A DNA stretch of 32,000 bases from Propionibacteriaceae bacterium (GCA_031256725.1 JAIRQE010000007.1:1-32000), one strand, 5' to 3'. Shown: positions 9,361 through 28,902, counted from the first letter of the stretch. Made by a program: numbers and translations. Notes: generated by a model not told the origin, from the sequence alone.

Positions 9361-9708
9361 AACACTAAACACTCTCCGGACTTGCCGGGGGATTCAGATC
9401 TCCGCAGGATGGTTGATAGTGGGTTCGCTCCATTTTAGTGCCACCCATTTTAATGTAGATGCCACTAAAACGGTACTGGATGCTGTGAAGCGGAGATTCA
9501 TGGAAATCCTGATGAGATAAGAACAGGGTTCAACTGGGAATGTAAAGGTGTCTTTCCAAAGGTTCGAGTATCAAGAAATGCAGCGAGTTCTAGATGTGAT
9601 TGCGGTATATCTGGAGGATCTCTAAAACTTCCTCGACTTATTTGTGCTTATGGGTATACTTTATCTTCATAAGGTATACTAATCCGCACAAAGTGAGTGG
9701 AGAGGGTG

Positions 9709-11031
9709 ATGGCAACCTTTGAGAAGTGGATGATCGATCCAGACTGGACTTCGCCCTATTCGGAGGAGCGCCGAGGTGGGATGGTACGTCGCTATCGTCC
9801 TGATTTTTTATGTGAAGTACACAATGTCCCCTCGGTTGCCATTGCAGAATTGGCGGGGGATGTCGCATCACGTATAACGGCTTTTGGGGCCAATCTTGGG
9901 AGTCGAAACTTGGGTCTGCTGTATGCGACATTACTCAAATCTGAGTCAATTTCATCCTCCCAGATTGAGGGGTACAAGACTCCACCAAGTGAAGTGGTGC
10001 TGGCTGAGTTTGCACCTGAGATTGCCACTACAACTGCCCTCACCATTCGCAAAAACGTGTTGGCTTTACAAGAATCCCTTCGGCGGTTGAATGGCTTGTG
10101 GACTTCAGAAGCTATCCATCAGATCCTGGTAACGCTGCTTCCGAACCACCCGGAAGGGTATCGGTCCACGCAAGTGCGAATCGGGGGACGCTCACTGTTC
10201 AGAGCCGCTTTCGTACCTCCTCCTGCTGAGGATGTATCAATGCTGATGGACGATCTTATTGATTATGCAAATAGGGGTCCAGAATCCATCGTCACCAAGG
10301 CTGGTGTCGTACATGCTCAGTTTGAGACTATTCACCCCTATAACGATGGGAATGGTCGTACTGGTCGTGCTTTGGTACATGCATTGTTTGCCCGAGCAGG
10401 ATTGCTGCCAGGGGCTGTACTGCCCGTATCAACCGTGTTGAGGGTTCGCTCGGAGCAATATATTGGCGCGTTGACTCAGTATCGCTACGACAGTGAGGCC
10501 GGGCAAAGCCGCCAAGATGCAGTCGATGCATTTGTGCAAATCTTCGCCGAGGCGCTCAATGATTCAGTCACCTTAGCTCAACTGGTTGCTGAGGATGTCG
10601 CTACTATCGAAGCCGAGTGGTCGCAAAAAACCGCAGGTTTTCGCGCAGACTCCACTGCTATCTGGGCTTTGCGGTCCTTAGTGAACCTACCCGCACTCAC
10701 CATCGAATCATTGGCTGCAGAAACCGCAGTGACGAAGAGAGCTGCGAGTCGTGCTATCTCAAAGCTCGTCAATGTTGGCATCCTCGTCGAAGCCACAGGG
10801 AAGTACAAGAAAGCATCTATATTTCTAGCCTCACAGGTTTTGGATCTTCTCACGCAGTGCGAGCGCCGCGCAGCCAGCCCAGACTTTGACACCAAACTCT
10901 CTCAGCCCGCGATCCCAGCACCTTTGCCCGTCACCCCACTAGTGATTCTCTGTAGTGAACCTATGCCCCGCGCTGGTACGACTTGTGTACTTAATAAAGG
11001 TCATATGGGACGCCATAGAAGTCAACGCTAG
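9709..11031 (+). CDS. Fic family protein (class II, auto-inhibited AMPylase type) with C-terminal winged-helix region
   Basis: Fic motif HPYNDGNGRTGR at 10333-10368. N-terminal inhibitory-helix motif SSQIEG at 9955-9972, which fits (S/T)xxxE(G/N). I prefer ATG 9709 because ggagagg lies at 9700-9706. The track lists GTG 9697. Confidence 0.9.
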   Translation: MATFEKWMIDPDWTSPYSEERRGGMVRRYRPDFLCEVHNVPSVAIAELAGDVASRITAFGANLGSRNLGLLYATLLKSESISSSQIEGYKTPPSEVVLAEFAPEIATTTALTIRKNVLALQESLRRLNGLWTSEAIHQILVTLLPNHPEGYRSTQVRIGGRSLFRAAFVPPPAEDVSMLMDDLIDYANRGPESIVTKAGVVHAQFETIHPYNDGNGRTGRALVHALFARAGLLPGAVLPVSTVLRVRSEQYIGALTQYRYDSEAGQSRQDAVDAFVQIFAEALNDSVTLAQLVAEDVATIEAEWSQKTAGFRADSTAIWALRSLVNLPALTIESLAAETAVTKRAASRAISKLVNVGILVEATGKYKKASIFLASQVLDLLTQCERRAASPDFDTKLSQPAIPAPLPVTPLVILCSEPMPRAGTTCVLNKGHMGRHRSQR

Positions 11032-13637: not shown

Positions 13638-15677
13638 ATGGATTTCCTCAACGTCTATGACCAAGGGTTTGTACGGGTAGCAGCGCGCGTACTCCCTATT
13701 CATCTTGCTCAGCCTCATAAGAATGCTGAGGCACTGATTAACGACATTCGGGCTATGGATGCCGAAGGTGTGGCTTTGGTTGCCTATCCTGAACTGTGTA
13801 TTACGGGTTATTCATGTGAGGACCTCTTTCTTCAGCAAACCCTCCTGGATTCAGCCGAGGAAGCCATTGGTACCCTTGTGGAGGCTTCGGAAAACCTACG
13901 TCCCTATATCGTCGTGGGCGCCCCCATCCGCTACCAAAGTCGACTGTACAACTGTGCTGTAGTGATCCAAGGTGGGGAACTGGTCGGTATAGTACCCAAG
14001 AGCTATCTGCCTAATTATCGAGAGTTCTATGAGCGTCGATGGTTCGCTCCAGGTGATGACATCTGGGGAGTAATTGAGGTTGCGGGTCGCTCAACCATGA
14101 TTGACCCGAATGCGATCTGGGGGATTGAGGCAAGCGAGGGGTTCGCCTTCCATGTCGAGGTCTGTGAGGACATGTGGGTGCCAGTCACCCCCAGCGCCCA
14201 GGCGGCTCTCCACGGCGCAACAGTCTTGGTCAACATCTCGGGGTCGCCGATCACGATTGGTAAGGCTGATGATCGTAAACTCTTGGCCCAATCCACATCG
14301 GCTCGATGCAATGCAGCCTATGTTTTCACTGCTGCTGGGCCAGGGGAGTCTTCCACGGATCTGAGCTGGGATGGGCAGACCTTCATCTATGAGGCAGGGG
14401 AATTGTTGGGTGAATCTGAACGTTTCCCAAGTACAGCTTCAGGGACCATCGTTGATCTTGATTGTCGCCGCTTAGTACAGGAGAGGTACCGCCAGGGTTC
14501 CTTTGATGACAACCGTCGTACCAACTCTGATGAGGGCTTTTCTATTGACCATCGCGAGATTGAGCTTCCTGCAGGTGAGATTGGGTTCAGGAGGGAGTTG
14601 GATCGTTTCCCCTATGTTCCAGATGACCCAGCGCGTTTGGCCCAGGATTGCTACGAGGCTTACAACATCCAGGTGTACGGCCTTGTCCAGCGTATGAAAG
14701 CTATTGGATCACCCAAGCTCATTATTGGGGTTTCGGGTGGTCTTGACTCCACGCATGCCCTGATCGTCTGCGCCAAAGCCATGGATCTTCTGGGGCGACC
14801 ACGCTCGGATATTCTTGCCTTCACGATGCCTGGGTTTGCGACCTCGGATCAGACGAAGAGCTCGGCTTTGGCATTGATGGAGGCCATGGGTACGACTTAC
14901 GAAACCATCGATATTCGACCTGCAGCAACTCAGATGCTCGCCGATATGGGGCACGGTTTCGCTCACGGTGAGGAACTCTACGATGTGACCTTCGAGAATG
15001 TACAGGCGGGGTTACGTACCGACTACCTCTTCCGGCTCGCCAACCAACGAGGTGGAATCGTTGTGGGAACAGGGGATCTTTCCGAGTTGGCCTTGGGGTG
15101 GTGTACCTATGGTGTGGGGGACCACATGTGCCATTATGCGGTCAACACAGGTGTACCCAAAACACTGATTCAATACCTTATTCGATGGGTGATGGATGAA
15201 GGGCTCTTCAACCAGGCCACCAATGAGATTCTCAACACTATCCTCAACCAGGAGATCTCGCCAGAACTCGTACCAGCCAAAGAGGACGAAGGTCTACAAT
15301 CCACCGAGTCGATCATCGGCCCATACGCGCTCAATGACTTCTTCCTCTACCATTTCCTGCGACGAGGTGAAACCCCAACAAGGATCGCCTATTTGGCATG
15401 GAACGCCTGGAGGGACTCCACAACGGGTACATGGCCCACTTCATGGCCTGAGACTCGCAAGGTAGACTATAGTCTTGAAAGCATTCGGGGATGGCTTGAA
15501 CTCTTCTTGAAAAGATTCTTCGCGAACCAATTCAAGAGGTCTGCCCTTCCCAATGGTCCGAAGGTGAGTGCTGGTGGAACACTGTCACCACGTGGGGACT
15601 GGAGAATGCCTTCTGATGTGAGTGAGGCCACCTGGCTGCGCGAACTCAACAAGAACCTACCAAGCGAGGCAATGTGA
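13638..15677 (+). CDS. nadE: glutamine-dependent NAD+ synthetase (large, nitrilase-domain fused form)
   Basis: An N-terminal CN-hydrolase domain plus the PP-loop GVSGGLDSTHAL. At 679 aa it is colinear with mycobacterial NadE as I remember it. Confidence 0.96.
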   Translation: MDFLNVYDQGFVRVAARVLPIHLAQPHKNAEALINDIRAMDAEGVALVAYPELCITGYSCEDLFLQQTLLDSAEEAIGTLVEASENLRPYIVVGAPIRYQSRLYNCAVVIQGGELVGIVPKSYLPNYREFYERRWFAPGDDIWGVIEVAGRSTMIDPNAIWGIEASEGFAFHVEVCEDMWVPVTPSAQAALHGATVLVNISGSPITIGKADDRKLLAQSTSARCNAAYVFTAAGPGESSTDLSWDGQTFIYEAGELLGESERFPSTASGTIVDLDCRRLVQERYRQGSFDDNRRTNSDEGFSIDHREIELPAGEIGFRRELDRFPYVPDDPARLAQDCYEAYNIQVYGLVQRMKAIGSPKLIIGVSGGLDSTHALIVCAKAMDLLGRPRSDILAFTMPGFATSDQTKSSALALMEAMGTTYETIDIRPAATQMLADMGHGFAHGEELYDVTFENVQAGLRTDYLFRLANQRGGIVVGTGDLSELALGWCTYGVGDHMCHYAVNTGVPKTLIQYLIRWVMDEGLFNQATNEILNTILNQEISPELVPAKEDEGLQSTESIIGPYALNDFFLYHFLRRGETPTRIAYLAWNAWRDSTTGTWPTSWPETRKVDYSLESIRGWLELFLKRFFANQFKRSALPNGPKVSAGGTLSPRGDWRMPSDVSEATWLRELNKNLPSEAM

Positions 15678-17539
15678 TTGAACAGACGGGGTCGCCGTTT
15701 CAGGTAGATCTGCGTGGAATCGTGGATCTGCTGGCTCGGCATCTCTATTCGGGCCCCAATGTATACCTGCGTGAACTCCTTCAAAATGGTGTTGACGCGA
15801 TCACGGCACGCCGTAGTATCGATCCCAGTTTCGTGGGTGAGATCCGCATACGGTCCTGGGGTGGGAACGGTTTAGAGATCACTGACAACGGGATCGGGTT
15901 AACAACTGATGAGGCTCGAGAACTACTCGCCACAGTTGGCCATTCCTCAAAAAGGGACCTTGATTTGGGAATGGGCCGCGAGGAGTTCCTGGGACAGTTC
16001 GGGATCGGGTTGCTCTCAGGGTTCATGGTTGCGGACACTATTGAGTTGGTCTCACGATCTGCCAGGGATCTTACTGCTCCGGCAGTGAAGTGGACGGGTC
16101 ACGATAATGGACATTACGACCTCAGTGAGCTTGAACGCGCGAAGGAGGATCCAGCCGGTTCAGTGGTTCGTATCCTTCCTCGACGGGGGATGGAACACTG
16201 GCTCCTTATCGACACGGTTGTTTCCCTGGCTGTCGAGTTTGGTTCCTTGCTACCAGTGAACGTCATGATCGAGGTACCACTTGACAGCCCAGAAGGTGAG
16301 TCTATGACCCATGTCTGGCGTCGAGTATCTGAGGAAAAGATGCCCTGGGTGAAGGAGTACCAACATGAGATCGCACGCCGTGAGGCTTTGGGTCGCTTCT
16401 GTGAGAACACCATGGGTTTCACACCTATGGCGGTCATTGATCTTGATGTAGCGCTCACAGGACTCACCGGTGTGGCCTTCATCATCCCCGACGCGGTACC
16501 TCCAGGGTCAGGTGGATTCCATCGGGTCTACCTCAAACAGATGCTCCTGGGTTCCCGGGTTGCGGGCCTTGTACCCGAGTGGGCCTTCTTCGTGCGCTGT
16601 GCCATCAATGCCACAGGCTTGGCCCCAACAGCATCGCGTGAGCAGCTGTACAACGATGACGCTCTTCTTGCGGCTCAAGAAGCTTTGGCAGAACAGGTAC
16701 GGGCGTGGGTCGTGGAAACATTGACCACCCAATCCCCGCTGGCCAAGGAATTTGTACACACCCATCACCTGGCTTTGCGTTCCTTGTCACTCACCGATGA
16801 TGTTGTCCTTGATCTTGCTGCAGAGGTACTTCCCTTCGAGACGACTGAGGGGATCCACACTCTACGTGAGGTGATGGATCAACAGTCCGAGGTTGTCTAC
16901 ACCGAGTCCTTGGAGGAGTACCGTCGTGTCGGGGCGGTAGCCAGAGCCCAGGGGATTCTCCTTGTCAATGCTGGATATGTCTATGATGCTGAACTTATGG
17001 CGAAGCTGGCTACCCGTGAACAATTCAAGGTACGCCCGCTGTCCTCAAGCGACATCACCCAGGTTCTCAGCGAGATTCAGCCGGTACGAGAACTGGAGAT
17101 CCTTGAACAGGTGACAGCAGCCTCCGAGATACTGGAATCCTTGGATATTCAGCCGGTGATACGCTGTTTTGAACCTGAGGGTCTGCCTGCGATGATCCTT
17201 GATGATCCGGGTACAGATTTGGGTCATCAAGGTTCCGAATCCCTGATAGGCGATGAGGACATTTGGTCCGATGTCTTGGCTGAGTTCGCTGAATCGAATG
17301 ACCGTTCTCGTCAGATCATCTTCAATGACACCAATCCGACTGTACGGCGTTGGCTCTCACTCGATCCTCATACTGACTTCTTCAAGGCCGGGCTCCAGTC
17401 GATGTACGTCTCTGCCATGTTGCTCAGTGGGGAACCTCTGCGTCCACGCGAGGCTGAGATGATGAACGACTCCCTGGAAACATTCCTAAAATGGGGCCTT
17501 CCTCCGGAGGGAGGCGGACATGACGAGGTCCGTTCCTGA
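15674..17539 (+). CDS. HSP90 family protein (non-canonical HtpG paralog, GHKL ATPase)
   Basis: Bergerat-fold motifs LRELLQNGVDA, TDNGIGL and GQFGIGLLSGF. The length (621 aa) is HtpG-like. Its GTG start overlaps the nadE stop (GTGA at 15674-15677). Confidence 0.85.
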   Translation: MIEQTGSPFQVDLRGIVDLLARHLYSGPNVYLRELLQNGVDAITARRSIDPSFVGEIRIRSWGGNGLEITDNGIGLTTDEARELLATVGHSSKRDLDLGMGREEFLGQFGIGLLSGFMVADTIELVSRSARDLTAPAVKWTGHDNGHYDLSELERAKEDPAGSVVRILPRRGMEHWLLIDTVVSLAVEFGSLLPVNVMIEVPLDSPEGESMTHVWRRVSEEKMPWVKEYQHEIARREALGRFCENTMGFTPMAVIDLDVALTGLTGVAFIIPDAVPPGSGGFHRVYLKQMLLGSRVAGLVPEWAFFVRCAINATGLAPTASREQLYNDDALLAAQEALAEQVRAWVVETLTTQSPLAKEFVHTHHLALRSLSLTDDVVLDLAAEVLPFETTEGIHTLREVMDQQSEVVYTESLEEYRRVGAVARAQGILLVNAGYVYDAELMAKLATREQFKVRPLSSSDITQVLSEIQPVRELEILEQVTAASEILESLDIQPVIRCFEPEGLPAMILDDPGTDLGHQGSESLIGDEDIWSDVLAEFAESNDRSRQIIFNDTNPTVRRWLSLDPHTDFFKAGLQSMYVSAMLLSGEPLRPREAEMMNDSLETFLKWGLPPEGGGHDEVRS

Positions 17540-19457
17540 AGCAACCATCGCCATTGGGCGAGTTCGAGCGATGCCCTTTGGGCGCTCCCGTACAGAGGCT
17601 GCTGCTCGACAGGTACGCATTATCGAAGCCGAGGGGCCCGATGAGGTACGCGCCTATGCCCTTGAATCCCTCGTTGAAGCGCTCACGTGGGCTGGCGAGG
17701 CTGAGAAGGCATTGGTACCTTTCGTCAAACTGTTGCGGTGGTGGGATCTCCATCCCGAACACTTCGATTCAGGCGACCAAAATATCTTGTTCTGGGAGTT
17801 TGGTTGGATCGTAAACGACCTCAGTCGTACCCCCACTGTTTCTGTAGAGAAAGTGGATCGTGTCCTTGAGGACATGGAGAAACGCTTCTCCCTCGCCAAT
17901 CGGGGAATGGAAAGGGTCTGGTGTTCACGCTTGGAATGGGCACTGCTGCGCCGCTCAGAGGATTTGGAGAAGACCTTCACAACCTGGCTCACGATGCCCT
18001 TGGATGATGAGGATTCCTGTGTGGCATGCCATAAGGAGTACCACGCGGGGTACCTCTTGGAAATCGGTGATATTCACGGGGCGGTCGCCATCTTGGAGGC
18101 TGGGATCGTCGCTGAACTGAGTTGTTCGCGAGAGCCAGCATCCATGCTGTCGGTACTTGCGTGGTGTTACCTCGAACTGGAGCGCCTCGAAGATGCCGAA
18201 AAGGTACTTCCCACAGCGCTAGGAGAGTTGAAGTCTGCGACCTCGATGAGTGTACTCATCGCCTATGCGCGACTCTTTGAGGTCTTCGCTCGCGGACACG
18301 ATAAGACGCGGGCCCTAGAGTTAATCGCCAAGATCGCGGAGTCGATCGAAACCGCATCAGCCTATGTACGACTGGAGACTCTACGTCACCTCATCGCCGG
18401 GATGAGATGCCTAAGCGAGCAGGGGTATGCGCAGGAGACAATCACTTTTGGGTCCGACGAAGACACTATCGCTCATCTGGTTGACTCCTTCGACACCCAA
18501 GCCACTGAGCTATCCGAAGCCTTCGATCATCGCCACGGTAATACTGTTCAAGCAGACCGCTTGGCTCGATCACGCAAAGTTCACTCCACATCCAGGCCTC
18601 TTGTGTTCGTACAACCAGAGAGACCCAGTTTCGTGGCAGGTACAACCTCAGCCAGTCATGATGTGACCTGGAACCGCGACCGTGCTTATCTGGATCAAGC
18701 CGAGGATGCCTACCAGGATGGGGACCACACCCAGGCCGCCGACCTCTACCGTATTGCTGCCGAACAGGCCCAAAGTGAGGGCCTCCTTTTGGAGGCAGGA
18801 TGGTGCTGGGCAGAGGCGGCGCGCAATGCCCAAGAGATCTCGCAATTCGATGTGGCAGCCCATGATTACATGGAAGCCCAAACGAGACTCAAAGCCGCTG
18901 GGGCAACCCTGGAAGAGATCACCCCCATGTTTATTGCCTGGGCACCCGTGGTACAAGAAAACCACTACCGCAAATATGTGGATATGGCCCTCTACGACTA
19001 CCCAACCCCAGCGCGCGCCCATGGTACAGACAAGATCGAGGAGATACTTCCGATCGTCTTCCAGTCATCGATGGTGAATACTCCGTTGATTAAGAAGTAC
19101 GTCCTAGCGCGTGCGGAACTCAGGGATTCGGTGGCCCGGGTTCTTGCAACCTGGGGAAGCCTTGAGGATAAGATTGAAGCCATCGACATGGTGGAGGAAT
19201 CAGCCACACGCTTCACCCTTCTGGGGCGTTCAGATGCCGCAGCCCACAGTTGGTGGCTGGCCGCCCGATTGGCAGCGGAAGTCAACCCGGCCCTAGTCAC
19301 CCCGAATTACAGCAAAGCACTCCAAGAATTCAAAGCAGTAGGCCAACGCGGGCGAGTCTTTGGGGCTCAGGTTGCGGGCGACTATGGCGAGTATTTGAGG
19401 ACCCTCGGACGCTACGATGAAGCCTCCAAAGTCGAAGAATCCTGGAAGGACGAGTGA
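17520..19457 (+). CDS. 645-aa alpha-helical repeat (TPR-like) protein of unknown function
   Basis: ATG 17520 follows GGAGGGAGG (17506-17514) and overlaps the HSP90-paralog 3' end by 20 nt. The sequence is helix-rich, with TPR-like stretches such as AEDAYQDGDHTQAADLYRIAAEQAQ. Confidence 0.7.
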   Translation: MTRSVPEATIAIGRVRAMPFGRSRTEAAARQVRIIEAEGPDEVRAYALESLVEALTWAGEAEKALVPFVKLLRWWDLHPEHFDSGDQNILFWEFGWIVNDLSRTPTVSVEKVDRVLEDMEKRFSLANRGMERVWCSRLEWALLRRSEDLEKTFTTWLTMPLDDEDSCVACHKEYHAGYLLEIGDIHGAVAILEAGIVAELSCSREPASMLSVLAWCYLELERLEDAEKVLPTALGELKSATSMSVLIAYARLFEVFARGHDKTRALELIAKIAESIETASAYVRLETLRHLIAGMRCLSEQGYAQETITFGSDEDTIAHLVDSFDTQATELSEAFDHRHGNTVQADRLARSRKVHSTSRPLVFVQPERPSFVAGTTSASHDVTWNRDRAYLDQAEDAYQDGDHTQAADLYRIAAEQAQSEGLLLEAGWCWAEAARNAQEISQFDVAAHDYMEAQTRLKAAGATLEEITPMFIAWAPVVQENHYRKYVDMALYDYPTPARAHGTDKIEEILPIVFQSSMVNTPLIKKYVLARAELRDSVARVLATWGSLEDKIEAIDMVEESATRFTLLGRSDAAAHSWWLAARLAAEVNPALVTPNYSKALQEFKAVGQRGRVFGAQVAGDYGEYLRTLGRYDEASKVEESWKDE

Positions 19458-19918
19458 TGGGATATTTCACCAGACCTGAGGGTCTCACCTCTGATTTAGC
19501 CCCACTGACAACGGGCCGGGTCACTGCCTGCTTGGATTCCCACCAATGGCATTACGAGGTTGCTGACGAGGGGGATGTCGGCGGCTGGTGGGACGGGTAC
19601 TGGTTCGTCTTCTCATTTCGTGGAAAATCCAAGGAGATCTTCTTCGCCCATGCGATCTGGAACCGAGGGGTACCGGCATCTGAGTTCAACCAGGCTGTCC
19701 TCTATGCCAACGAGTGGAATTCTGAACACCTGTGGCCCATGATGAGTGTACGTGAGAGGGATGACACCATCGTTGTACTCACCGACTTCTCAGTCGATTA
19801 TGGTTTCGGTCTCACTGATGAGCAGCTTGATCTCCACATCCGTTGTGCCATCGACACCATGGTTTCTGCCCTCACCTGGATGGATTCCAAGTACCCTGAC
19901 TACGTCGACAACAAGTAG
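19454..19918 (+). CDS. YbjN-domain-like protein (secretion-chaperone-like fold family)
   Basis: About 150 aa and acidic, with W/F-rich blocks WWDGYWFVFSF and ANEWNSEHLWP that I associate with actinobacterial YbjN-family proteins. GTG 19454 or ATG 19457 overlaps the upstream stop. Confidence 0.65.
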   Translation: MMGYFTRPEGLTSDLAPLTTGRVTACLDSHQWHYEVADEGDVGGWWDGYWFVFSFRGKSKEIFFAHAIWNRGVPASEFNQAVLYANEWNSEHLWPMMSVRERDDTIVVLTDFSVDYGFGLTDEQLDLHIRCAIDTMVSALTWMDSKYPDYVDNK

Positions 19919-20135
19919 AAAATGGGTGTACGAAGTCGCCCATTTCCCTGGATTGAAGCTAAGCCCAATCTACAAGGTGATGTTAAATTACAGGCGAAAT
20001 GAAGGTTTCGTGTTGTATTAGTACACAGTATGTTATTATGAAAAAGAATATTCAGAAATTGAAGGAACCTATTCAGTTTCTATTAAATCAGTGATTCAGT
20101 TCTCGTGGATCCCCATGAGGTGTTTTGTTTGATGA

Positions 20136-21026
20136 ATGCAGGCTTATAGTATGGTGTTGACTTTGTCGAATCGTATCGTGATTTTTTGTATGATTATGAC
20201 GACGGCGTTTTCGCTTTGTGCTTGCTCTTTTTCGTCGTCACCTGTGAATGAGTCTTCTGATATACCTGCGGTTCCTTCTGCGGTGCTTGATTGGTCTAGG
20301 TCAACGATCGTCTTGCCATTGGATAGATATGGCATGAGTATTGCTGAAGAGCAGGTGGTTCTTACTGCTCAGGTTATTGTTCTTTGGGGGTGTCTTGTGC
20401 CAGGTGTTGACCTGTCGGAGGAAGCGCTTCGACAAGCAAGAAAAATGCTTACGGTCGATGATTCGGTCAACAATTGGTTGTACGGGGCATGGAATGCCAG
20501 CTATATTGCGAGTCATGGTGTCCGTGGATCGGAGATCTCTGCGTGGCCATCTTTCCCGAATGTTGATGACGACACATATTACTCCTGTATTAGTGAACGT
20601 GCATTTTTAGACATGGCTGTAGTGAATGGAACTAGGTATCCAGGTGAGGCAAATACAGTGACATTGGCCCTCATTCGCTACTCGGTCGAGGCTCACGATA
20701 ATACGCTTGCTGACCCGCGCTTCATCGAGTTGGTGCAGACTCGTTCACAATGCGTTCGCGACCAAGGTTACACGGTTTACGAGGATGAACTTGGGGGTAT
20801 TGATCTGGGGTCTTCGTCGACAGAAGAGCAGTTTCTCGCGGCTATGCTTGCCGAAGCAACGTGTAGTGATCAGATGAGTTTTACCCAGCGGGCGGCTGAC
20901 ATCAATGTTGAGTATGAGATGCAGATTATCCGTGAACACGAAGCTGAGCTAGTGACTATCAAACATATCGCGGACGAGCGTGTCGCTAGAGCTACTCAGA
21001 TTTTGGAAGAGGTTGGGGTTCTGTAG
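20136..21026 (+). CDS. putative secreted lipoprotein, unknown function
   Basis: N-terminal hydrophobic segment ending in LCAC, followed by a Ser-rich linker (lipobox-like). G+C is lower than neighbours, at 40% and 48% in the two lines I counted. The start is uncertain. Confidence 0.55.
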   Translation: MQAYSMVLTLSNRIVIFCMIMTTAFSLCACSFSSSPVNESSDIPAVPSAVLDWSRSTIVLPLDRYGMSIAEEQVVLTAQVIVLWGCLVPGVDLSEEALRQARKMLTVDDSVNNWLYGAWNASYIASHGVRGSEISAWPSFPNVDDDTYYSCISERAFLDMAVVNGTRYPGEANTVTLALIRYSVEAHDNTLADPRFIELVQTRSQCVRDQGYTVYEDELGGIDLGSSSTEEQFLAAMLAEATCSDQMSFTQRAADINVEYEMQIIREHEAELVTIKHIADERVARATQILEEVGVL

Positions 21027-21050
21027 TGGAAGTGCTGCGGAATATGATTT

Positions 21051-21548
21051 ATGAGTAAAAGATCTGTTGCGATACTTGCTGCTGTTGTTGGGGTGCTGAT
21101 AGGTGCTTTAAGCGGCTCTTTGGTGGTAGCTTGGTTGTATCCACCAGTTGACACGGGTCCAATTGACAATGCGACAAAGGCCTTGCTAGTGACTGGAGTT
21201 CTTACTCTCTCATCGTTAACAGCAGGAACAACAATGTTTCTCTCGGTCCAACATCGCTCCGCTGAGATCGCACTCAGACGTGCAATGGGTGCTTCCAGGG
21301 GTTCAGTATTCCGACTCTTCGCTGTGGAAGGAATAGCCATCGGCATCGCCGGTGGTATCCTCGGAACAGCCCTTGGCATCGGGTTAACGATGTCGATAAC
21401 CTACCTCAACCACTGGCCTCTTGCATTGGGACTGGACATTGTTGCTCAAGGGGTTTTGGTTGGTCTCCTCGCGGGAACGATCGCCTCAATTGTCCCAGCA
21501 ACGTACGCCTCACGTCGCGATCCCGCCCAAATCCTGCGGGCAGTGTAA
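21051..21548 (+). CDS. minimal FtsX-domain membrane protein (4 TM, essentially no extracytoplasmic domain)
   Basis: TM1 (SVAILAAVVGVLIGALSGSLVVAWLY), a loop of only ~13 aa, then the FtsX core with EIALRRAMGASRGSVFRLFAVEG and two further TMs. Total length is 165 aa. Confidence 0.7.
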   Translation: MSKRSVAILAAVVGVLIGALSGSLVVAWLYPPVDTGPIDNATKALLVTGVLTLSSLTAGTTMFLSVQHRSAEIALRRAMGASRGSVFRLFAVEGIAIGIAGGILGTALGIGLTMSITYLNHWPLALGLDIVAQGVLVGLLAGTIASIVPATYASRRDPAQILRAV

Positions 21549-21638
21549 TCTCTTACCTTCTGAAGTCATAGTGAATGGGTGATACATCAGGGGTGGACTG
21601 TTTCATACTCGGAACGTGGATGCGAGAGAATTGTCCTT

Positions 21639-22289
21639 ATGGCTAAAGCACGTACCCCTATTCTCAAGGTCTCCAAGCTACAGAAGGCTTACGGGGACCA
21701 TGTTATTGTTTCCGACTTCTCTATGGACCTCTGGCCTGGGGATGCTGTGGCATTGACGGGGCGTAACGGTGCTGGAAAGTCCACGATCCTGCGATGCTTG
21801 GTTGGGGCCGAGGCCGCTGATGATGGAACCATCGAAATCGATGGGCTGCCTTTGAGGGAGGCTGATGCACGGGTACGAGCAGCCATGGCAACCGTCATTG
21901 ATGACTTGGATTTCTTCCCAGATCTGTCAGTGGTCGAACACCTCGACTTGCTAGCCCGTGCCTATGGGTTGCCTGATCCTGAGGTTGCTGTGGATGCGAT
22001 CTTGGGGGAGGTGCTCCTAGTACCCCAATCAGGTCAGCTACCCGGAACACTATCGTCGGGGCAGCGTCGACGCTTAGCCTTGGCCACTGCTTTCATTCGT
22101 CCCCGCAAGGTACTCGTCCTTGATGAACCTGAGCAGAGACTTGATGTTGAGGGCGTGGAGTGGCTAGCCAACAGGCTCAAAGAGGAGCGAGACCAGGGAT
22201 TGGCGATCATTATGGCAAGTCATGAGCCCAAACTGGTCGAAACTGTGTCCACCCGTACTATCCATGTGGGCGGTGCGCGTAATGGCTAA
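21639..22289 (+). CDS. ABC transporter ATP-binding protein
   Basis: Walker A GRNGAGKST, signature LSSGQRRR, Walker B VLVLDEPE and H-loop SHEP. I prefer ATG 21639 (MAKARTPILKV) over the track start at 21579. Confidence 0.9.
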   Translation: MAKARTPILKVSKLQKAYGDHVIVSDFSMDLWPGDAVALTGRNGAGKSTILRCLVGAEAADDGTIEIDGLPLREADARVRAAMATVIDDLDFFPDLSVVEHLDLLARAYGLPDPEVAVDAILGEVLLVPQSGQLPGTLSSGQRRRLALATAFIRPRKVLVLDEPEQRLDVEGVEWLANRLKEERDQGLAIIMASHEPKLVETVSTRTIHVGGARNG

Positions 22290-24090
22290 GAAGCGCAAGC
22301 CTCAAGGGTACAAAGCCCAACCGGTTGAGAAACCCGAGGCCGTCGAAGAAGTCGTGGTCGAAGAGGTGGTTGAGACCATTAATGAGACCGAACCGCCTGT
22401 GGAATTCCCGAAATGGGAGCATTCTCTCATTGATCTGGAGCCGGAACCCGTCTATGAACGGGATCTAAGGAATCTTGTACGCGACTGGCGGCGTGGACGT
22501 GCTACGAAGACCCTGCGCCAGGTGCTTGCCGATGGCTATGTCACAGTCTTTGCCATCATCATGATTGTTGCGATGCTGGGAAGTGGTGTGTGGACAGCCC
22601 AAGGGGCTGCGGCCGCATGTGAAACCGGGTCATGCCAGGTGGGACGTACCCTACTCCCGTGGGTGGCGACTGCAGCTGCCTTCTGTTTGACGGCCATGGC
22701 TTCTCGAATCTTCGGCCCTGTTGTGGCTTCTGCTGCTGAGGGATTCTGGTTGATGGATGCCCCAATTCGTCGAGGCCGCTTGCTGTGGAAGCGCCTGGTG
22801 GGAGTCGTTCTGGCTGTGGCTGGGATCGCTGCTGCGTTGGGTGGACTCATGGCTGCGTTGACTGGGTACCAGATCGATGACATCTGGCGCTGGGCGATCG
22901 CTATGGGTGTGGGTGCCGCAGGTATCACTGCCCTTGCTGCTGCTGAGCAGACCTGGGGGCGTACATGGGTCATCTCCTTGATTCAGTGGGTTTTCGGCCT
23001 CGGGGCAGTCTCGGTTTTGTTTGTCGTTGTGAGCTATGCGGCCGGGTGGTTCGGGGTAACTATTCCCCAGATCTCAGAAACAACTACTGTTGTTTGGGTT
23101 GCGTTGGGTGGGGGCGTACTCCTGCTCATTGGGGGCTTCATTGCACTCCAGCGCTTGGGGAGGATCCATCGGGCCCGTCTGGTCTCCGGTGGTACCCTCG
23201 TCTCCGGGATGCAGGGCGCAGCCTTCGCTATGGACTTCGGTTTGATGAGGGACATCCTTGTCGAACGTGATGCGATACGTCGAGGCCATGTACGTCCGGC
23301 GCGCGGTTCCGGTTCGGGTGCGAATGCTCTCGTGTGGCGTGAAGTGCAACGACTGTGGCGCTATCCAAAGAGGATCATGCTCATTGTGGTTTCAGTGGTC
23401 GTACCCTATGCAGTGGCTGCCCTCGGATTCCACACCTTCAATCCCTTCATTTCATCCCTGATCCTGCTTATCGGGTTCGTACCCATGCTTGGATCCATGA
23501 GGATCATGACTCGTACCAAGGGCCTAGCGCGCACCCTTCCGCTCTCCAATCCCCAGATCCGCAAAGCCATGGCAACCGTCCCAACAATCTTTGCCGTGTT
23601 GTGGGCCGCAGCAACAACCTGGGCCTTCTGGGGAATGGGGAACCATGGTACCCAAACACTCATGCAGGCCTTCGTCACCGCAGGGCTCACCGCCGCTGCT
23701 GGTCTGCTAGCCGCTATTCGATGGGTGACTGCCAAGTCGGCCAACTACCAGATGCCCATGATGCAGACAGGCTTTGGGGCCATGCCTCCGGGCTTGATCT
23801 TCAACCTTTTCCGCGGCATAGACATCGTCGTGATCGTAACTGGACCACTCCTTCTTGGTTGGTCGCCATGGATCTCAGGGGTCATCGCCGTCATCTGCAC
23901 TTTCGCCCTGTCGGGGCAGTACTCCATGGAAGAGATGCAAGCCATGCAGAAAGAAATGGAAAAAGAGAAAGCACGCTCTGGAGGTACGGGCACAGGCCTC
24001 TTCGGTGGCGGTAGAGCCCCCGCAGCTCCGGTCACCAAGCAGAAGATTGCTCCCCCCAAGGGATACCGCAGCCCACCAGTTGTGAAATAG
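22282..24090 (+). CDS. large polytopic membrane protein partnered with the ABC ATPase (DUF-type; possibly DUF6297-like)
   Basis: ATG 22282 overlaps the ATPase stop by 8 nt. It has an acidic VEE-rich N-terminus, about 12 hydrophobic segments, and a Lys/Pro-rich tail. Confidence 0.75.
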   Translation: MAKKRKPQGYKAQPVEKPEAVEEVVVEEVVETINETEPPVEFPKWEHSLIDLEPEPVYERDLRNLVRDWRRGRATKTLRQVLADGYVTVFAIIMIVAMLGSGVWTAQGAAAACETGSCQVGRTLLPWVATAAAFCLTAMASRIFGPVVASAAEGFWLMDAPIRRGRLLWKRLVGVVLAVAGIAAALGGLMAALTGYQIDDIWRWAIAMGVGAAGITALAAAEQTWGRTWVISLIQWVFGLGAVSVLFVVVSYAAGWFGVTIPQISETTTVVWVALGGGVLLLIGGFIALQRLGRIHRARLVSGGTLVSGMQGAAFAMDFGLMRDILVERDAIRRGHVRPARGSGSGANALVWREVQRLWRYPKRIMLIVVSVVVPYAVAALGFHTFNPFISSLILLIGFVPMLGSMRIMTRTKGLARTLPLSNPQIRKAMATVPTIFAVLWAAATTWAFWGMGNHGTQTLMQAFVTAGLTAAAGLLAAIRWVTAKSANYQMPMMQTGFGAMPPGLIFNLFRGIDIVVIVTGPLLLGWSPWISGVIAVICTFALSGQYSMEEMQAMQKEMEKEKARSGGTGTGLFGGGRAPAAPVTKQKIAPPKGYRSPPVVK

Positions 24091-24402
24091 GTTTTCGGGC
24101 GCCAATTCCCTGCGGGCACAATCATTGGATGACCCGCTGATCCTGTCATGGAGATAACTTCGCAATCTCGTCACAATGAGAGCCATCCCGAGGATGATTG
24201 TGAACTTTGTACCAAATCTGAAGCAATCCGGCCACCCTAACTTCCCGAATCTGGAAGAGGGGGATCTCAGTGGGTTGGGTTTGAGAAGTTGTGTGCTGAA
24301 TACATGGATCGGCGATGTCATGCTGTGCACTGCGACTTCACGCAACACGGGCCTCATCGCAGCATCCAGACATCATGACCCCAATCGAACTAGACTCTAG
24401 TC

Positions 24403-25449
24403 ATGGCCCGACCTCATTCCCATCGACTCGGTATTATCGCCGGGTTGACCTCGGCTGTGCTCTTCGGGGCGGGTACGCCCATCGCTAAGGTACTGCTCAA
24501 TTCGGTGAGCCCCTGGCTATTGGCGGGGTTGCTGTACACAGGCTCGGGTCTTGGGTTGGGGCTTTATCGTGCACTGCGCCGCTCACCTAGAGTACGCATT
24601 CCCCCGACGGAGATCCCTCCTCTGATCGGAGCCATCTTTTTTGGAGGGATTCTTGCGCCGGTACTTCTCATGTTTGGGCTGTCGGAGCTACCAGCATCGG
24701 GGGCTTCGCTGTTGTTGAATGCTGAGGCTGTGTTGACAGCATTGCTTGCGTGGTTTGTGTTCAAAGAGAATGTGGATCGACGGGTTGGCCTGGGGATGCT
24801 CGCTATCGTGGTTGGTGCGATCATCGTATCCATACCGGGTGGAGTTGAATGGGGATCCTTGTGGCCGTCACTAGCAATAGTGGGTGCCTGCCTATGCTGG
24901 GGGATCGATAATAATCTCACGCGCAGGGTTTCCCTCAATGATGCTGTGTGGTTGGCTGCACTCAAAGGGGGAGTGGCTGGGCCTGTGAATCTGAGTCTCG
25001 CCTTTGTGATAGGTGCGATCCTGCCCCCACTGATGAATATTGCTGCTTCTATGGGGGTCGGGCTTCTTGCGTACGGGGTAAGCCTGGTGTTGTTCATTGT
25101 GGCCTTGCGTCACCTGGGTACGGCGCGGGCCAGTGCCTATTATTCTGTGGGGCCCTTCTTCGGTGCGGCAGTAGCCTTGGCGATGGGGGAGTCACTCACC
25201 TGGTGGCTGGCTATCGCAGGGGTACTCATGGCTGTCGGGGTGTGGCTGCATCTAAGCGAAAACCATACCCATGAACACACCCATCGTGGGGAAACCCATG
25301 ACCACTGGCATCGCCATACCGATGATCATCACGACCACACCCATGAGGACCTACCTCCCGGTACATGGCATCGCCACGAACATGTACACGCGTCAGTGAC
25401 CCACTCCCATTCACATTATCCCGACTCTGAGCATCGACATACCCATTAA
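24403..25449 (+). CDS. DMT/EamA-type transporter with a histidine-rich C-terminal tail
   Basis: About 10 TM segments in an EamA-like arrangement. The last 66 residues (25249-25446) contain 23 His in HxH-type spacing. Confidence 0.75.
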   Translation: MARPHSHRLGIIAGLTSAVLFGAGTPIAKVLLNSVSPWLLAGLLYTGSGLGLGLYRALRRSPRVRIPPTEIPPLIGAIFFGGILAPVLLMFGLSELPASGASLLLNAEAVLTALLAWFVFKENVDRRVGLGMLAIVVGAIIVSIPGGVEWGSLWPSLAIVGACLCWGIDNNLTRRVSLNDAVWLAALKGGVAGPVNLSLAFVIGAILPPLMNIAASMGVGLLAYGVSLVLFIVALRHLGTARASAYYSVGPFFGAAVALAMGESLTWWLAIAGVLMAVGVWLHLSENHTHEHTHRGETHDHWHRHTDDHHDHTHEDLPPGTWHRHEHVHASVTHSHSHYPDSEHRHTH

Positions 25450-25657
25450 GTACCGTGTTGTCATTTCTGTACTGTGACCTCATGCAGCACAGGATCTATA
25501 CCTTGACCGTACAACCTTGAGTATCCTCCCAGAGATGGGCGATATATCACTCTTAAGGATGAGAGGGTTGTGGATGACCCTGACCCTTGTACTGACTCAC
25601 CCCTGAATTGGGGATTTTCGCTTGAATACCAAAATTTCTGCACGTAGGGTCGAAGTT

Positions 25658-26410
25658 ATGACAGCAGTTGAATACTCCTCGGTACAGCCCATCGTCTCGG
25701 CTACGAATCTCGTCAAGGTCTATGGTGAAGGTGACACCCTAGTACGCGCACTTGATGGGGTCAGTGCATCCTTTGCCTCCGGTACCTTCACAGCAATCAT
25801 GGGTCCTTCGGGCTCTGGAAAATCCACACTCATGCACTGTTTGGCTGGGCTTGATGAGTCAACATCGGGCCATATCGCCATCAATGGTACGGCCGTGGAA
25901 TCCCTCAATGACAATGAGCTCACCAAGCTGCGTCGAGACCAGATCGGATTCATCTTCCAGTCGTTCAACCTTCTTCCCACACACACAGCTAAGGAGAATA
26001 TCCTTCTCCCACTCGAATTGGCGGGGACTCAAGCAGACCAGAATCTACTGTCTCATCTTGTGAAGTCTCTAGGACTCGAAGGACGAATGGGCCACCTGCC
26101 CTCGCAGCTTTCGGGTGGTGAACAGCAGCGTGTAGCCGTCATTCGAGCACTCATCTCCCATCCTTCTGTTGTCTTTGCTGACGAACCGACTGGCGCACTC
26201 GACACTCGCAACTCCAAGCATCTGTTGTCCTATCTGTGTTCTGCGAGTCAGGAACTGGGGCAAACCATCATCATGGTTACTCATGATCCGAAAGCCGCTC
26301 GCTATGTGGATCGGGCCATCATCCTCTCCGACGGCCAGGTACGTCATGATATGGACGAACCCACCGAGGAGACCGTGATCGAGGCCATGCGTCACCTTGG
26401 AGGTGAGTAA
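25658..26410 (+). CDS. ABC transporter ATP-binding protein, MacB/LolD/FtsE-like
   Basis: GPSGSGKST, LSGGEQQRVAVIRAL, VVFADEPTGALD and VTHD. I prefer ATG 25658. Confidence 0.92.
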   Translation: MTAVEYSSVQPIVSATNLVKVYGEGDTLVRALDGVSASFASGTFTAIMGPSGSGKSTLMHCLAGLDESTSGHIAINGTAVESLNDNELTKLRRDQIGFIFQSFNLLPTHTAKENILLPLELAGTQADQNLLSHLVKSLGLEGRMGHLPSQLSGGEQQRVAVIRALISHPSVVFADEPTGALDTRNSKHLLSYLCSASQELGQTIIMVTHDPKAARYVDRAIILSDGQVRHDMDEPTEETVIEAMRHLGGE

Positions 26411-28902
26411 TGGCATCCCCCATGTTCAAAGCAGCGCTCAAGGAGTTGAAGTTCCATCCAGCGCGGTACCTCGCAACTATCGTTGCCATTGCCATTTCGG
26501 TGGGATTTGTGGCAGCCTCATCCATGGTGACCTCCACTGAAGGTACCGCCTCTGCTCGACAGCTTTCTGCTCCCTATGCACGAGCCGATCTTGTGATGAC
26601 ACTCACGCCAGCATCCACCGTGACGACCACTCAGGCAGAGGTACGTGAGGCAGTACTCACGACTCCAGGTGTGGATACTGGAGAGCCTCTGATCAACCAA
26701 ACGCTGCTGTTGTCGAAGGGCAACCTCGTAGGGTTGGCTTCGGTCACCGTACTCCCATCAAGCCAGTTCCTGTGGACCGAACTTCGCGAAGGTACCTGGC
26801 CCGCAAGCGGAGAGATCGCCCTCAACTCTGCTCTCGCTAAGGCTCTAGAAGTCGGTATAGGTGACCAGATTGACCATGACGACACGTCTTTAACCGTGTC
26901 CGGGATCACGACCGAACCCGTCAGTACCTTTATAGGTACCAACACTGCGATCATCGGACCAGATGAATCTCCCACAGATGAATGGGTGCACTTCGGAAAC
27001 TGGGTGCTGACACTCAACGACACCGTCAGTATCACTCAGGTCATCTCTGATCTGGAAGCCGCTATTGGCGCATTGGGACTGCCTGTTGAGGTCGTTGCTG
27101 GTGAGGACTATGTCAAGGAGGTGGCTCGCAGTGTCACTGGTGATATTGACACCTTCAAGTATCTCCTATGGATCTTCGCTGCTATTGCTGTTGTGGTGGG
27201 GTTGATCACCATTTCTAACACCTTCACGATCCTTTTGGCTCAACGCCAACGCCATATTGGTCTCCTGCGCAGCATTGGTACCTCTGGGAAGCAGATCCGC
27301 CGATCAGTGTGGGTTGAAGCGCTTTTTCTTGGTTTGATCGGTGGCCTGATCGGTGTGGGTTTGGCCTGCGGATTAACCGCTGTATTAGGCATATTCACTG
27401 GATCGATTCATTACGGCATTCACGTACCTCTCGTGGAGACTGCTCTAGCACTCGGACTTGGAATGGTTATCACACTGGTGGCCTCCATTGTTCCCGCTCG
27501 TCGATCCTCCAAGGTGCCTCCCCTTCAAGCCCTCCAACCTGTTGCGATGGGCGTACATGTCAAGCGAGTATCAATCGTCAGAACAGTGATCTGCGGACTC
27601 ATGATCGCAGCCGGTTTTGCGGGAGCCTTGTACTCTGTAACAATCACGGACAATGCCTTGCTTGTTGCTGTACTGAGTTCGGGTGTCCTTGCTGTTGGTG
27701 TTCTTTTTGGTGCCCGCCTGTTCGTACCCTCTCTGCTCAGGGCAGTCGGGTTTTTGGTGCGCGGTCTTGGACCTGAGGGTTCGGCTGCTGCAAAGAATGT
27801 CATACGAGATCCCGCTCGGGCCTCAGCGACTGCGACTGCACTCATGCTTGCTGTGGGGCTGATCATCACCTTGCAGATTGGGGCAGCCTCAATGAGTATC
27901 TCTGTCCAGAATAAGGTTGCTGAGGAATACCCGATCGACTTGTTTGTGAGCTCGCGTATGGATGGCGATGGTCGACTTGATCTTCCAGCGGCGATGAGCA
28001 GGAGCCTCAATGAGATCTCTGGAATTGGTCGGGTTCTCTCCATTGCCTGCAAGGATCAAGAATCGGTTGCTGAGGGGGAGACCAGCAGTTTCGACCGAGT
28101 GTGTAGTTACACTCCAGAACTGGCGGCCTTTGCTCCACGACTTCCCCAAGCAGTTCCCGATGACCAAATCTTCATCTGGGAGTCAGGTTGGGGTCTTACG
28201 GAGGGGGCTACCGTTGAACTGAATGCGGGTGGTATCCCCATGAAGGTGACGACGAAGTTTGAGCCCATTGTCATGGACTCTTATTCCTTCGTATCCCCCA
28301 AGGTCTATGCCACACTGGCAGGAGAATCCTATGACAATGCCCTCATCTTCATGAAGGTGTCCGAGGAGTCAAACCTTATGCCAGTGGTACAAGCAGTCGA
28401 AGAGGTTGTGGGTGAACACTTAAGGTTTGCTCAACTTGATGGTTCCATCTTCCAGAAGACCATGATTGAGCAGGCCATGGATATCGTCGTTAGCATAGTC
28501 TCTGCTTTGCTGGCGGTGGCCGTACTCATCGCCCTGGTTGGCGTGGGGAACACTCTCACCCTGTCAGTGATTGAACGTCAACGCGAGAATGCCATCTTTA
28601 GGGCCCTCGGATTCCTCAAACGTCAATTGAAGATCATGCTCCTCATTGAAGCAGCCCTGCTCACCCTCATTGGTGGAGTGGTTGGCTTAGTCTTCGGTGG
28701 ATTCTTCGGTTGGATTGGCGCCAAGGCTGCAGCCGCCCAGTTCGTCACGGACGGAGTGGTACTACCGGTCACCTTTGCCATCGACTGGCCCATGACCCTG
28801 GGTCTATTGGGTGTACTCCTTGTGGCTTCCATCTTGGCTTCACTCCTCCCAGGCCGCCGAGCCGCCAAAGCCAGCCCCGTGGAAGCCCTAGCCGAAATCT
28901 AG
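26410..28902 (+). CDS. ABC transporter permease with two FtsX domains (MacB-type, 830 aa)
   Basis: Two FtsX cores (RQRHIGLLRSIGTSGKQI and RQRENAIFRALGFLKRQL), each preceded by a large extracytoplasmic region. Its start overlaps the ATPase stop (TAATG). Confidence 0.9.
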   Translation: MASPMFKAALKELKFHPARYLATIVAIAISVGFVAASSMVTSTEGTASARQLSAPYARADLVMTLTPASTVTTTQAEVREAVLTTPGVDTGEPLINQTLLLSKGNLVGLASVTVLPSSQFLWTELREGTWPASGEIALNSALAKALEVGIGDQIDHDDTSLTVSGITTEPVSTFIGTNTAIIGPDESPTDEWVHFGNWVLTLNDTVSITQVISDLEAAIGALGLPVEVVAGEDYVKEVARSVTGDIDTFKYLLWIFAAIAVVVGLITISNTFTILLAQRQRHIGLLRSIGTSGKQIRRSVWVEALFLGLIGGLIGVGLACGLTAVLGIFTGSIHYGIHVPLVETALALGLGMVITLVASIVPARRSSKVPPLQALQPVAMGVHVKRVSIVRTVICGLMIAAGFAGALYSVTITDNALLVAVLSSGVLAVGVLFGARLFVPSLLRAVGFLVRGLGPEGSAAAKNVIRDPARASATATALMLAVGLIITLQIGAASMSISVQNKVAEEYPIDLFVSSRMDGDGRLDLPAAMSRSLNEISGIGRVLSIACKDQESVAEGETSSFDRVCSYTPELAAFAPRLPQAVPDDQIFIWESGWGLTEGATVELNAGGIPMKVTTKFEPIVMDSYSFVSPKVYATLAGESYDNALIFMKVSEESNLMPVVQAVEEVVGEHLRFAQLDGSIFQKTMIEQAMDIVVSIVSALLAVAVLIALVGVGNTLTLSVIERQRENAIFRALGFLKRQLKIMLLIEAALLTLIGGVVGLVFGGFFGWIGAKAAAAQFVTDGVVLPVTFAIDWPMTLGLLGVLLVASILASLLPGRRAAKASPVEALAEI

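Follow-up and report, generated by a model that had tools for sequence, protein, structure and literature searches.

Do a lone ATPase gene, two structurally unrelated membrane protein genes and a lipoprotein gene that lie side by side encode one transport machine, or have two systems come to share one locus? This question is raised by positions 20136–24090 of a 32,000-nt stretch of DNA from a Propionibacteriaceae bacterium (GCA_031256725.1 JAIRQE010000007.1:1-32000), hereafter called the window, to which all coordinates refer unless a comparison locus is named. A preliminary description of the window had listed a lipobox-bearing protein of 296 residues, a 165-residue protein with an FtsX domain but apparently no ectodomain (the "mini-FtsX"), an ATP-binding cassette (ABC) ATPase and a polytopic membrane protein, suspected to be DUF6297, with an 8-nt overlap between its start and the ATPase stop; all four open reading frames (ORFs) are present as described. 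For their joint presence it had offered two explanations, namely an uncharacterized envelope ABC machine with the lipoprotein as the extracytoplasmic module missing from the mini-FtsX, or two systems juxtaposed by insertion. The evidence presented here favours the latter: in all probability, two unrelated units stand side by side, one a conserved ATPase–DUF6297 pair and the other an inserted, decayed cassette, the mini-FtsX of which is chimeric. A genuine FtsX protein lacking an ectodomain, encoded beside a single ATPase, would have amounted to a new ABC architecture; what is found instead is a deletion scar.

The conserved unit was recognized from its distribution. The product of 22282–24090 matches the DUF6297 profile (PF19814) over positions 1–375 of 375 with 432.2 bits against a gathering score of 29.8, as had been suspected, and 769 homologues were retrieved at E ≤ 1e-10, those with a named source coming mostly from Propionibacteriaceae. 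Species-representative genomes contained 331 DUF6297 relatives, of which 80 loci were taken with 8-kb flanks and searched by tblastn with all proteins of the window. An orthologue of the window ATPase (62–89% identity) lies directly upstream of DUF6297 and on the same strand at 79 of these 80 loci, the remaining one having just 90 nt of upstream DNA. The cultivable relatives Acidipropionibacterium and Cutibacterium (L041, L057) are among the carriers of the pair. No match to the lipoprotein or to FtsX was detected within 8 kb of DUF6297 at any of the 80 loci, which represent Propionibacteriaceae and related actinobacterial metagenome-assembled genomes (MAGs), nor was DUF6297 present at any of 23 lipoprotein loci. 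The four families thus do not co-occur outside the window, an outcome that the preliminary description had set beforehand as counting against a single machine. In one MAG that contains both units, Gx481_bin45, the cassette described below and the DUF6297 pair are on separate contigs (L001 and L022, respectively; L-numbers denote the homologous loci and contigs used for comparison).

The mini-FtsX was then compared with full-length relatives. PF02687 (FtsX) matches residues 46–158 of the ORF (E = 5.5e-14; 52.7 bits against a cut-off of 25.5), and the C-terminal domain with transmembrane helices 2–4 (TM2–TM4) is present, the first ~8 residues of TM2 being replaced. The permease's own TM1 and the extracytoplasmic MacB_PCD domain, which full-length relatives have, are missing, and the ORF has no ATPase of the MacB/LolD/FtsE clade adjacent to it. 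Among 5.8 billion proteins searched, nine close relatives (60–74% identity) cover only the C-terminal 63–70% of the ORF, a restriction that applies to every relative above 45% identity; besides the window's own gene call, none extends to the adaptor-derived N-terminal anchor. Alignment of the longer relatives P0007, P0009, P0011 and P0012 showed that they run upstream into the ordinary extracytoplasmic domain of a MacB-type permease.

Both halves of the ORF could be traced to separate genes. On L001, a 146-kb contig of a Propionibacteriaceae MAG, a lipoprotein homologue is followed by a 370-residue membrane-anchored protein (the adaptor), an ABC ATPase and an FtsX permease; the N-terminus of the adaptor reads ...GALAGAFGLAWLNPPVDTAPIDNATRPILVT and that of the window ORF ...GALSGSLVVAWLYPPVDTGPIDNATKALLVT. 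By BLASTP, ORF residues 21–48 align with residues 24–51 of this adaptor (64% identity, E = 6e-10) and residues 51–165 with the C-terminus of the L001 permease (74% identity, E = 4e-57). The adaptor of L097 is 77% identical over ORF residues 14–48 and that of L104 48% identical over residues 1–48, and for the 3' part of the ORF identity again reaches 74% with the permease C-terminus of L104 and 58% with residues 300–415 of the 415-residue L003 permease. When the cassette proteins were searched against the window by tblastn, adaptor matches (from 21060/21087 with L001 and L003) stopped at 21194 and permease matches began at 21198, in a common frame. The matched adaptor and permease pieces belong to different genes and are separated by 2,500 nt in L104 and 3,020 nt in L109. 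Because its two halves map to separate genes in such cassettes, the mini-FtsX is, judged from its sequence, the in-frame product of a deletion that fused two gene stumps, and it is most likely non-functional. The earlier label "ectodomain-less FtsX" describes the layout of the ORF correctly but not its nature, as this is not a natural short member of the FtsX family, and annotation as such should not be propagated.

The closest relative of the locus, L089 (78% identity in DUF6297), has a TPR protein, a YbjN-family protein, a 66-nt spacer, the ATPase and DUF6297 in succession, with no insert. By blastn, window positions 19445–19918 correspond to L089 1893–2366 (78.7% nucleotide identity) and 21624–22339 to L089 2418–3133, homology being lost at 19918 and back by 21624; positions 21584–21642 align in addition with L089 2375–2436, nearly all of the 66-nt spacer. 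From these alignments, the insert sits just past the YbjN stop, at ~19919–21583. The spacer between YbjN and ATPase measures ~20–90 nt in L010, L013 and L021 and ~150 nt in L012, and in other loci the spacer is occupied by different cargo. L009 (5564–7214), L011 (4972–7358, with an unrelated 247-residue lipoprotein in addition) and L015 (4790–7358) have a class-III aminotransferase there, L018 (4774–7358) has a MacB-type permease and ATPase, and L090 (509–7123) has 6.6 kb that include AAA_14/DUF4143 and DUF6571 genes. The spacer is therefore a variable site, and the cargo of the window is one of several. Neither an integrase nor clear att repeats could be recognized at this site in the compared genomes. 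The only mobile-element-like signature found was an imperfect 13-nt direct repeat near the borders of the insert (TAGAAAATGGGTG at 19916–19928 and TAGTGAATGGGTG at 21569–21581); with an estimated chance of ~0.1, it was not used as evidence of insertion.

Base composition was examined across the same region. The 217-nt AT-rich spacer that had been noted ahead of the lipoprotein gene was confirmed (36.9% G+C). G+C content (GC) is 0.48 across 19919–21623 vs 0.54 for the whole window, with 43% in the 500-nt interval 20001–20500. The previously reported drop in the lipoprotein gene is real but smaller than the 40–48% against 57% then given, as this gene has 48.4% (0.48 at third codon positions, GC3) and the flanking genes 54–58% (GC3 0.56–0.66). 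A scan of 19800–21700 gave no match to a sigma-70-type promoter and terminator-like sites at chance level, and PADLOC returned only generic ABC and LolE-domain matches, with no defence system.

The cassette from which the insert derives comprises five genes, encoding in order a small secreted protein, the lipoprotein, the adaptor, an ATPase and a permease. It is complete in L003, L004, L097 and L104; in L108 and L109, only the end of the lipoprotein gene precedes the genes for adaptor, ATPase and permease. Termite-gut metagenomes and MAGs are the source of most cassette loci. The small protein (~127 residues) has a signal peptide. Of five copies compared, three pass the cut-off of PF03995 (Inhibitor_I36), a fourth misses it by only 0.3 bits, and one has a beta/gamma-crystallin match. 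The adaptor (360–385 residues) has a single helix, at its N-terminus, and matches PG_binding_1 weakly; neither it nor the small protein matched an NCBIfam model. For the ATPase, the best NCBIfam models were L_ocin_972_ABC (189 bits), MacB (184) and LolD (175), with FtsE also among them, and the permease (~415 residues) carries MacB_PCD and FtsX domains. A literature search yielded nothing relevant on the I36 family in such a context. Measured against this set, the window retains the lipoprotein alone intact: the ATPase is gone, adaptor and permease are reduced to stumps, and no remnant of the small I36-like gene was found in the window by tblastn (E > 0.6).

On these comparisons, DNA of an accessory five-gene cassette has been inserted in the short YbjN–ATPase spacer, and an internal deletion of ~2.5–3 kb, made before or after the insertion, has joined adaptor codon ~48 in frame to permease codon ~300. 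Lost with it were the body of the adaptor, the cognate ATPase in full and, from the permease, TM1, the ectodomain and the opening residues of TM2. Taken as a whole, the arrangement is one of ordinary genome decay, and its parts belong to known kinds.

Other copies of the cassette are decaying too. L002 is interrupted by an insertion sequence, L001 carries a frameshift, and in L007/L100 the lipoprotein gene is directly followed by a different FtsX 3' stump. Retention of FtsX 3' stumps (L002, L007 and L091) was considered as a sign of selection, a reading rejected for ascertainment bias: it was the 3' end of FtsX that had served as query to retrieve these loci. L091 itself, a metagenomic contig of 1.4 kb, has an identical lipoprotein fragment at both ends (1–99 and 1290–1370), and in it a 5' fragment of a lipoprotein gene runs into a 3' fragment of FtsX; either a decayed cassette is tandemly repeated here, or the contig is an artefact of cyclic assembly. 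It was also observed that an AAA_14/DUF4143 ATPase gene adjoins the cassette in L003 (7922–9196) and L006 (227–1195) and occurs within the alternative cargo of L090 (547–1773). Its recurrence may either mark one type of mobile island or be coincidental.

The lipobox given in the preliminary description is confirmed, and the lipoprotein, for which no family had been recognized there, belongs to no Pfam or NCBIfam family. Its hydrophobic segment spans residues 14–32, and the lipobox L-C-A-C30 aligns with LGGC, LGAC, VSGC and LAGC, Cys30 being invariant in 22 sequences; with signal peptide and lipobox both present, lipidation is predicted. Also invariant in this alignment, and kept in the window copy, are P61, C86, W119, G128, C151, C206 and C243, so that the family has four invariant cysteines besides that of the lipobox. 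Since homologues span the N-terminus and conserve the lipobox, the 296-residue start is preferred over a gene call of 230 residues. In best tblastn segments, the lipoprotein is 30–46% identical to homologues in L001–L007 and L093–L108, and 49% identical over the 53 residues that L109 holds. The family comprises 1,536 clusters at E ≤ 1e-3 (representatives at 50% identity), and a 12-sequence alignment served as query for a metagenome scan. An AlphaFold2 model (predicted local distance difference test, pLDDT, 71) is all-helical; the structure search that had been recommended, carried out with Foldseek against the PDB, gave no match at E ≤ 0.001 (TM-scores ≤ 0.16), and no fold was assigned.

Lipoprotein paralogues occur in tandem arrays of two to four genes, some of them frameshifted, in L096, L098, L101, L103–L105 and L107, and as orphans without a pump in L093, L094, L099 and L102, these array and orphan loci being mostly from termite-gut metagenomes. 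The pattern resembles that of immunity-gene arrays. Within the insert, only the lipoprotein can still function; its gene is intact, and the protein may act alone like the orphan copies elsewhere. By analogy with YknWXYZ and bacteriocin ABC loci, the MacB-type pump and adaptor of the parent cassette might export, or protect against, the I36-like protein, with the lipoprotein as an accessory or immunity factor. That the cassette is an undescribed actinobacterial protein-toxin system, in which the I36-like protein is exported or pumped away, the lipoprotein provides immunity or a shield, and the orphan in the window is under selection, is a speculative proposal, and we regard it as more doubtful than likely. 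If true, it would explain why an intact lipoprotein gene persists amid broken neighbours, as well as the tandem arrays and orphans found elsewhere. In any case, the comparisons define a five-gene cassette that recurs without annotation and a large family of lipoproteins that has no name, together a candidate toxin, immunity or export system.

The second unit was characterized further. Of the starts at 21579 and 21639 (ATPase) and at 22222 and 22282 (DUF6297), those at 21639 and 22282 are preferred; the ATG at 21639, which gives 216 residues, is the start used in L089 and in the gene calls of a Logan contig, L110, and the 8-nt overlap of the DUF6297 start with the ATPase stop is identical in L089. 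The best NCBIfam matches of the window ATPase were CcmA (113 bits), FtsE and NodI, at 105–113 bits, with L_ocin_972_ABC at 89, and no MacB or LolD model was among its top 25 matches. Among PDB chains, it comes closest to nucleotide-binding domains of ABCF and ABCA type. Identity to the cassette ATPases is 28–29%, and that of the other ATPase of the window (25622–26410) is 37–39%. DUF6297 has its own conserved N-terminal cytoplasmic segment, DWRRGRATK. The AlphaFold model of DUF6297 (pLDDT 57.8) gave best TM-scores of 0.36–0.42, to 8K1O/8K1P (8K1O 0.42, E = 0.73), and no fold match in the PDB at E ≤ 0.001; a profile search of PDB sequences returned no match at E ≤ 1. When residues 55–335 were aligned with residues 336–570 by hhalign, the probability was below 1%, a comparison that far-diverged halves would escape. 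DUF6297 is mentioned in no paper of the literature searched.

On sequence evidence, then, ATPase and DUF6297 are a translationally coupled, vertically inherited two-gene ABC module, in which DUF6297 is the only conserved membrane partner of the ATPase. Modelled on single-polypeptide type V exporters, two copies of the ATPase would dock on one ~600-residue DUF6297 chain and drive export; for the substrate, we infer a probably lipophilic or envelope compound. The pairing gives DUF6297 a testable role as the membrane subunit of an ABC transporter across the Propionibacteriaceae and related actinobacteria sampled.

Three other explanations were weighed against that of two juxtaposed units. The four genes are adjacent, on the same strand and separated by short gaps, the lipoprotein is extracytoplasmic with a conserved lipobox, and the FtsX core keeps its coupling-helix region, all of which would suit one envelope ABC machine whose single ATPase serves both mini-FtsX and DUF6297 while the lipoprotein acts as extracytoplasmic module. 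Such a machine can nonetheless be given next to no credence: the genes fail to co-occur at the 80 DUF6297 and 23 lipoprotein loci, both extra genes are missing from L089, the mini-FtsX consists of two genes fused, and the ATPase differs in clade from FtsX-type partners. In the cassette, moreover, the lipoprotein coexists with a full-length permease that bears the MacB_PCD ectodomain, so it is not a replacement for that domain. A mis-join during metagenome assembly, collapsing a full cassette, would also produce the junction, given that the window resembles a MAG contig, that assemblers can be confused by tandem arrays of paralogues such as the cassette genes form, and that the small contig L091 has identical ends. 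We consider this very improbable, as L110 (23.7 kb, from Logan run SRR14710887) is 100% identical across 10.3 kb spanning the junction (16234–26548), and since this independent assembly is identical the arrangement is not peculiar to one assembly. The fusion is, besides, in frame and joins non-repeated sequence, and both flanks are syntenic with those of relatives.

Several points do weigh against decay as the full account. The reading frame of the chimera is uninterrupted over 165 codons; the predicted topology, with an anchor helix, a short external loop and the last three helices, mimics an ectodomain-less four-helix FtsX bundle; and a second MacB-clade ATPase, encoded 4 kb downstream (25622–26410), could in principle serve it. 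No intact cassette above 74% amino-acid identity was found, and the breakpoint is placed to ± 2 codons only. The putative export role of the ATPase–DUF6297 pair is read from its architecture, the model being poor and without a significant fold match. Co-option of the chimera as a minimal four-helix FtsX-type subunit, working with the lipoprotein and powered by the 25622–26410 ATPase or by none, would accommodate the first of these points. The ORF is intact with its own ATG, anchor helix and three FtsX helices have a consistent predicted in/out topology, every invariant residue of the family's C-terminal domain is retained, and the L007/L100 lineage likewise keeps a lipoprotein gene followed by an FtsX 3' stump. 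The L007 stump, however, differs in its endpoints and lacks an anchor helix, which speaks against a conserved architecture, and the stumps are subject to the ascertainment bias mentioned above. With ~8 residues replaced, TM2 falls under a hydropathy threshold that the native TM2 passes, the other copies (L002, L001) are visibly decaying, and an in-frame fusion has a one-in-three prior probability. Co-option is accordingly thought unlikely, and less likely than a toxin/immunity role of the cassette. Two juxtaposed units, one of them a decayed remnant, remain the preferred explanation, and the features of the locus are listed on this basis in Table 1.

Table 1. Features of the insertion site, the two units and the deletion junction (window coordinates)
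Feature	Position	Strand	Evidence or remark
YbjN-family gene	19454..19918	+	PF10722, E = 9.8e-19; left core flank of insertion site
Lower-GC inserted segment, ~1.65 kb; remnant of accessory MacB-type cassette	19919..21583		No counterpart in closest relatives
AT-rich spacer, 217 nt, 5' of lipoprotein gene	19919..20135		GC 0.369
Lipoprotein gene, 296 aa, unnamed family, intact	20136..21026	+	Homologues, conserved lipobox
165-aa "mini-FtsX" ORF, predicted adaptor/permease chimera	21051..21548	+	PF02687 and BLASTP/tblastn
5' stump of adaptor gene ("mini-FtsX" residues 1–48)	21051..21194	+	Start codon, membrane anchor, ~20 extracytoplasmic residues
Deletion junction, codon 49 ± 2 codons, in frame	21195..21197	+	Boundaries of adaptor and permease matches
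3' stump of MacB_PCD/FtsX permease gene ("mini-FtsX" residues 50–165)	21198..21548	+	Most of TM2, TM3, TM4
Ancestral YbjN–ATPase spacer, right of insert	21584..21638	.	Alignment to L089 spacer
ABC ATPase, 216 aa	21639..22289	+	ABC_tran, E = 1.5e-26; cognate partner of DUF6297; outside MacB/LolD clade
DUF6297 polytopic membrane protein, 602 aa	22282..24090	+	PF19814, E = 1.9e-129

Several neighbouring genes were recorded in the course of the analysis. Positions 15674–19918 hold a conserved block of three genes whose stop and start codons overlap; they encode an HSP90-family protein (NCBIfam PRK14083, 686 bits), a 645-residue protein with weak TPR matches and the YbjN-family protein. The block is syntenic in L009–L018, of which L013 has a second TPR-like gene 3' of DUF6297, and it may be an uncharacterized chaperone module. 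Downstream of DUF6297, an EamA/DMT-family transporter (24403–25449) ends in an extremely His-rich tail of ~60 residues (HTHEHTHRGETHDHWHRHTDDHHDHTHED...HSHSHYPDSEHRHTH), the composition of which suggests metal binding. Next follows a separate and apparently intact MacB-clade ABC system (25622–28902), consisting of a 262-residue ATPase (25622–26410) and an 830-residue permease with duplicated FtsX modules, the start of which overlaps the ATPase stop; this ATPase is the nearest possible surrogate for any FtsX-type stump. Lower GC (46–50%) was also seen at two other places in the window. At 54–935, in an ORF that as listed begins 53 nt from the window edge, a Pretoxin-HINT protein (PF07591) is encoded that probably belongs to a polymorphic toxin, and an accessory Fic/DOC-family gene lies at 9697–11031.

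Comparison with known systems was made for each unit. The transporter YknWXYZ, made up of four components, shields Bacillus from the SDP toxin that it produces itself (PMC4887032). Like this Gram-positive MacB/FtsX-type (type VII) system with a membrane-fusion adaptor, the parent cassette has a MacB-clade ATPase, a MacB_PCD/FtsX permease, a co-encoded membrane-anchored adaptor and a further, accessory component, and it adjoins a gene for a small secreted protein. In the cassette, however, the accessory role falls to a Cys-rich lipoprotein whose family has no name, instead of a YknW-like membrane protein, and the adaptor has a PG_binding_1-like segment; the window keeps 48 adaptor and 116 permease codons, fused and without the cognate ATPase.

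For the ATPase–DUF6297 pair, the nearest likeness is to the M. tuberculosis type V ABC exporter Rv1217c-Rv1218c, whose two transmembrane domains are fused in a single polypeptide and whose ATPase, encoded separately, forms a homodimer (PMC11406275; PDB 8K1M/N/O). Both have a single ATPase gene in translational coupling with a single gene for a polytopic protein of ~550–600 residues, and the window ATPase is nearest to ABCA-type nucleotide-binding domains. The top TM-scores of the DUF6297 model (0.36–0.42) are to 8K1O/8K1P, at non-significant values and for a model with a pLDDT of 58. Unlike Rv1217c, DUF6297 shows no detectable internal duplication and no sequence similarity to that protein, and it has the DWRRGRATK segment of its own.

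Bacteriocin loci that combine their own ABC transporter with an immunity lipoprotein offer a further parallel for the cassette. Its ATPase best matches L_ocin_972_ABC (TIGR03608), the score of 189 bits lying below the cut-off of 254.85, its first gene encodes a small protein with a signal peptide, and its lipoproteins form arrays and orphans as immunity genes often do. LanI-type immunity lipoproteins are known in bacteriocin loci. Unlike the case in lactococcin-972 loci, the small protein is I36/beta-gamma-crystallin-like, and a toxin or immunity role of the cassette is proposed by analogy only. The mini-FtsX, finally, fits the deletion-born fusion ORFs of accessory islands, in which the 5' portion of a gene continues in frame into the 3' portion of the second gene beyond it. 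As with such remnants, it lies in a lower-GC insert at a variable site, its sister copies are broken by an insertion sequence or frameshifts, and in no essential respect does it differ from them.

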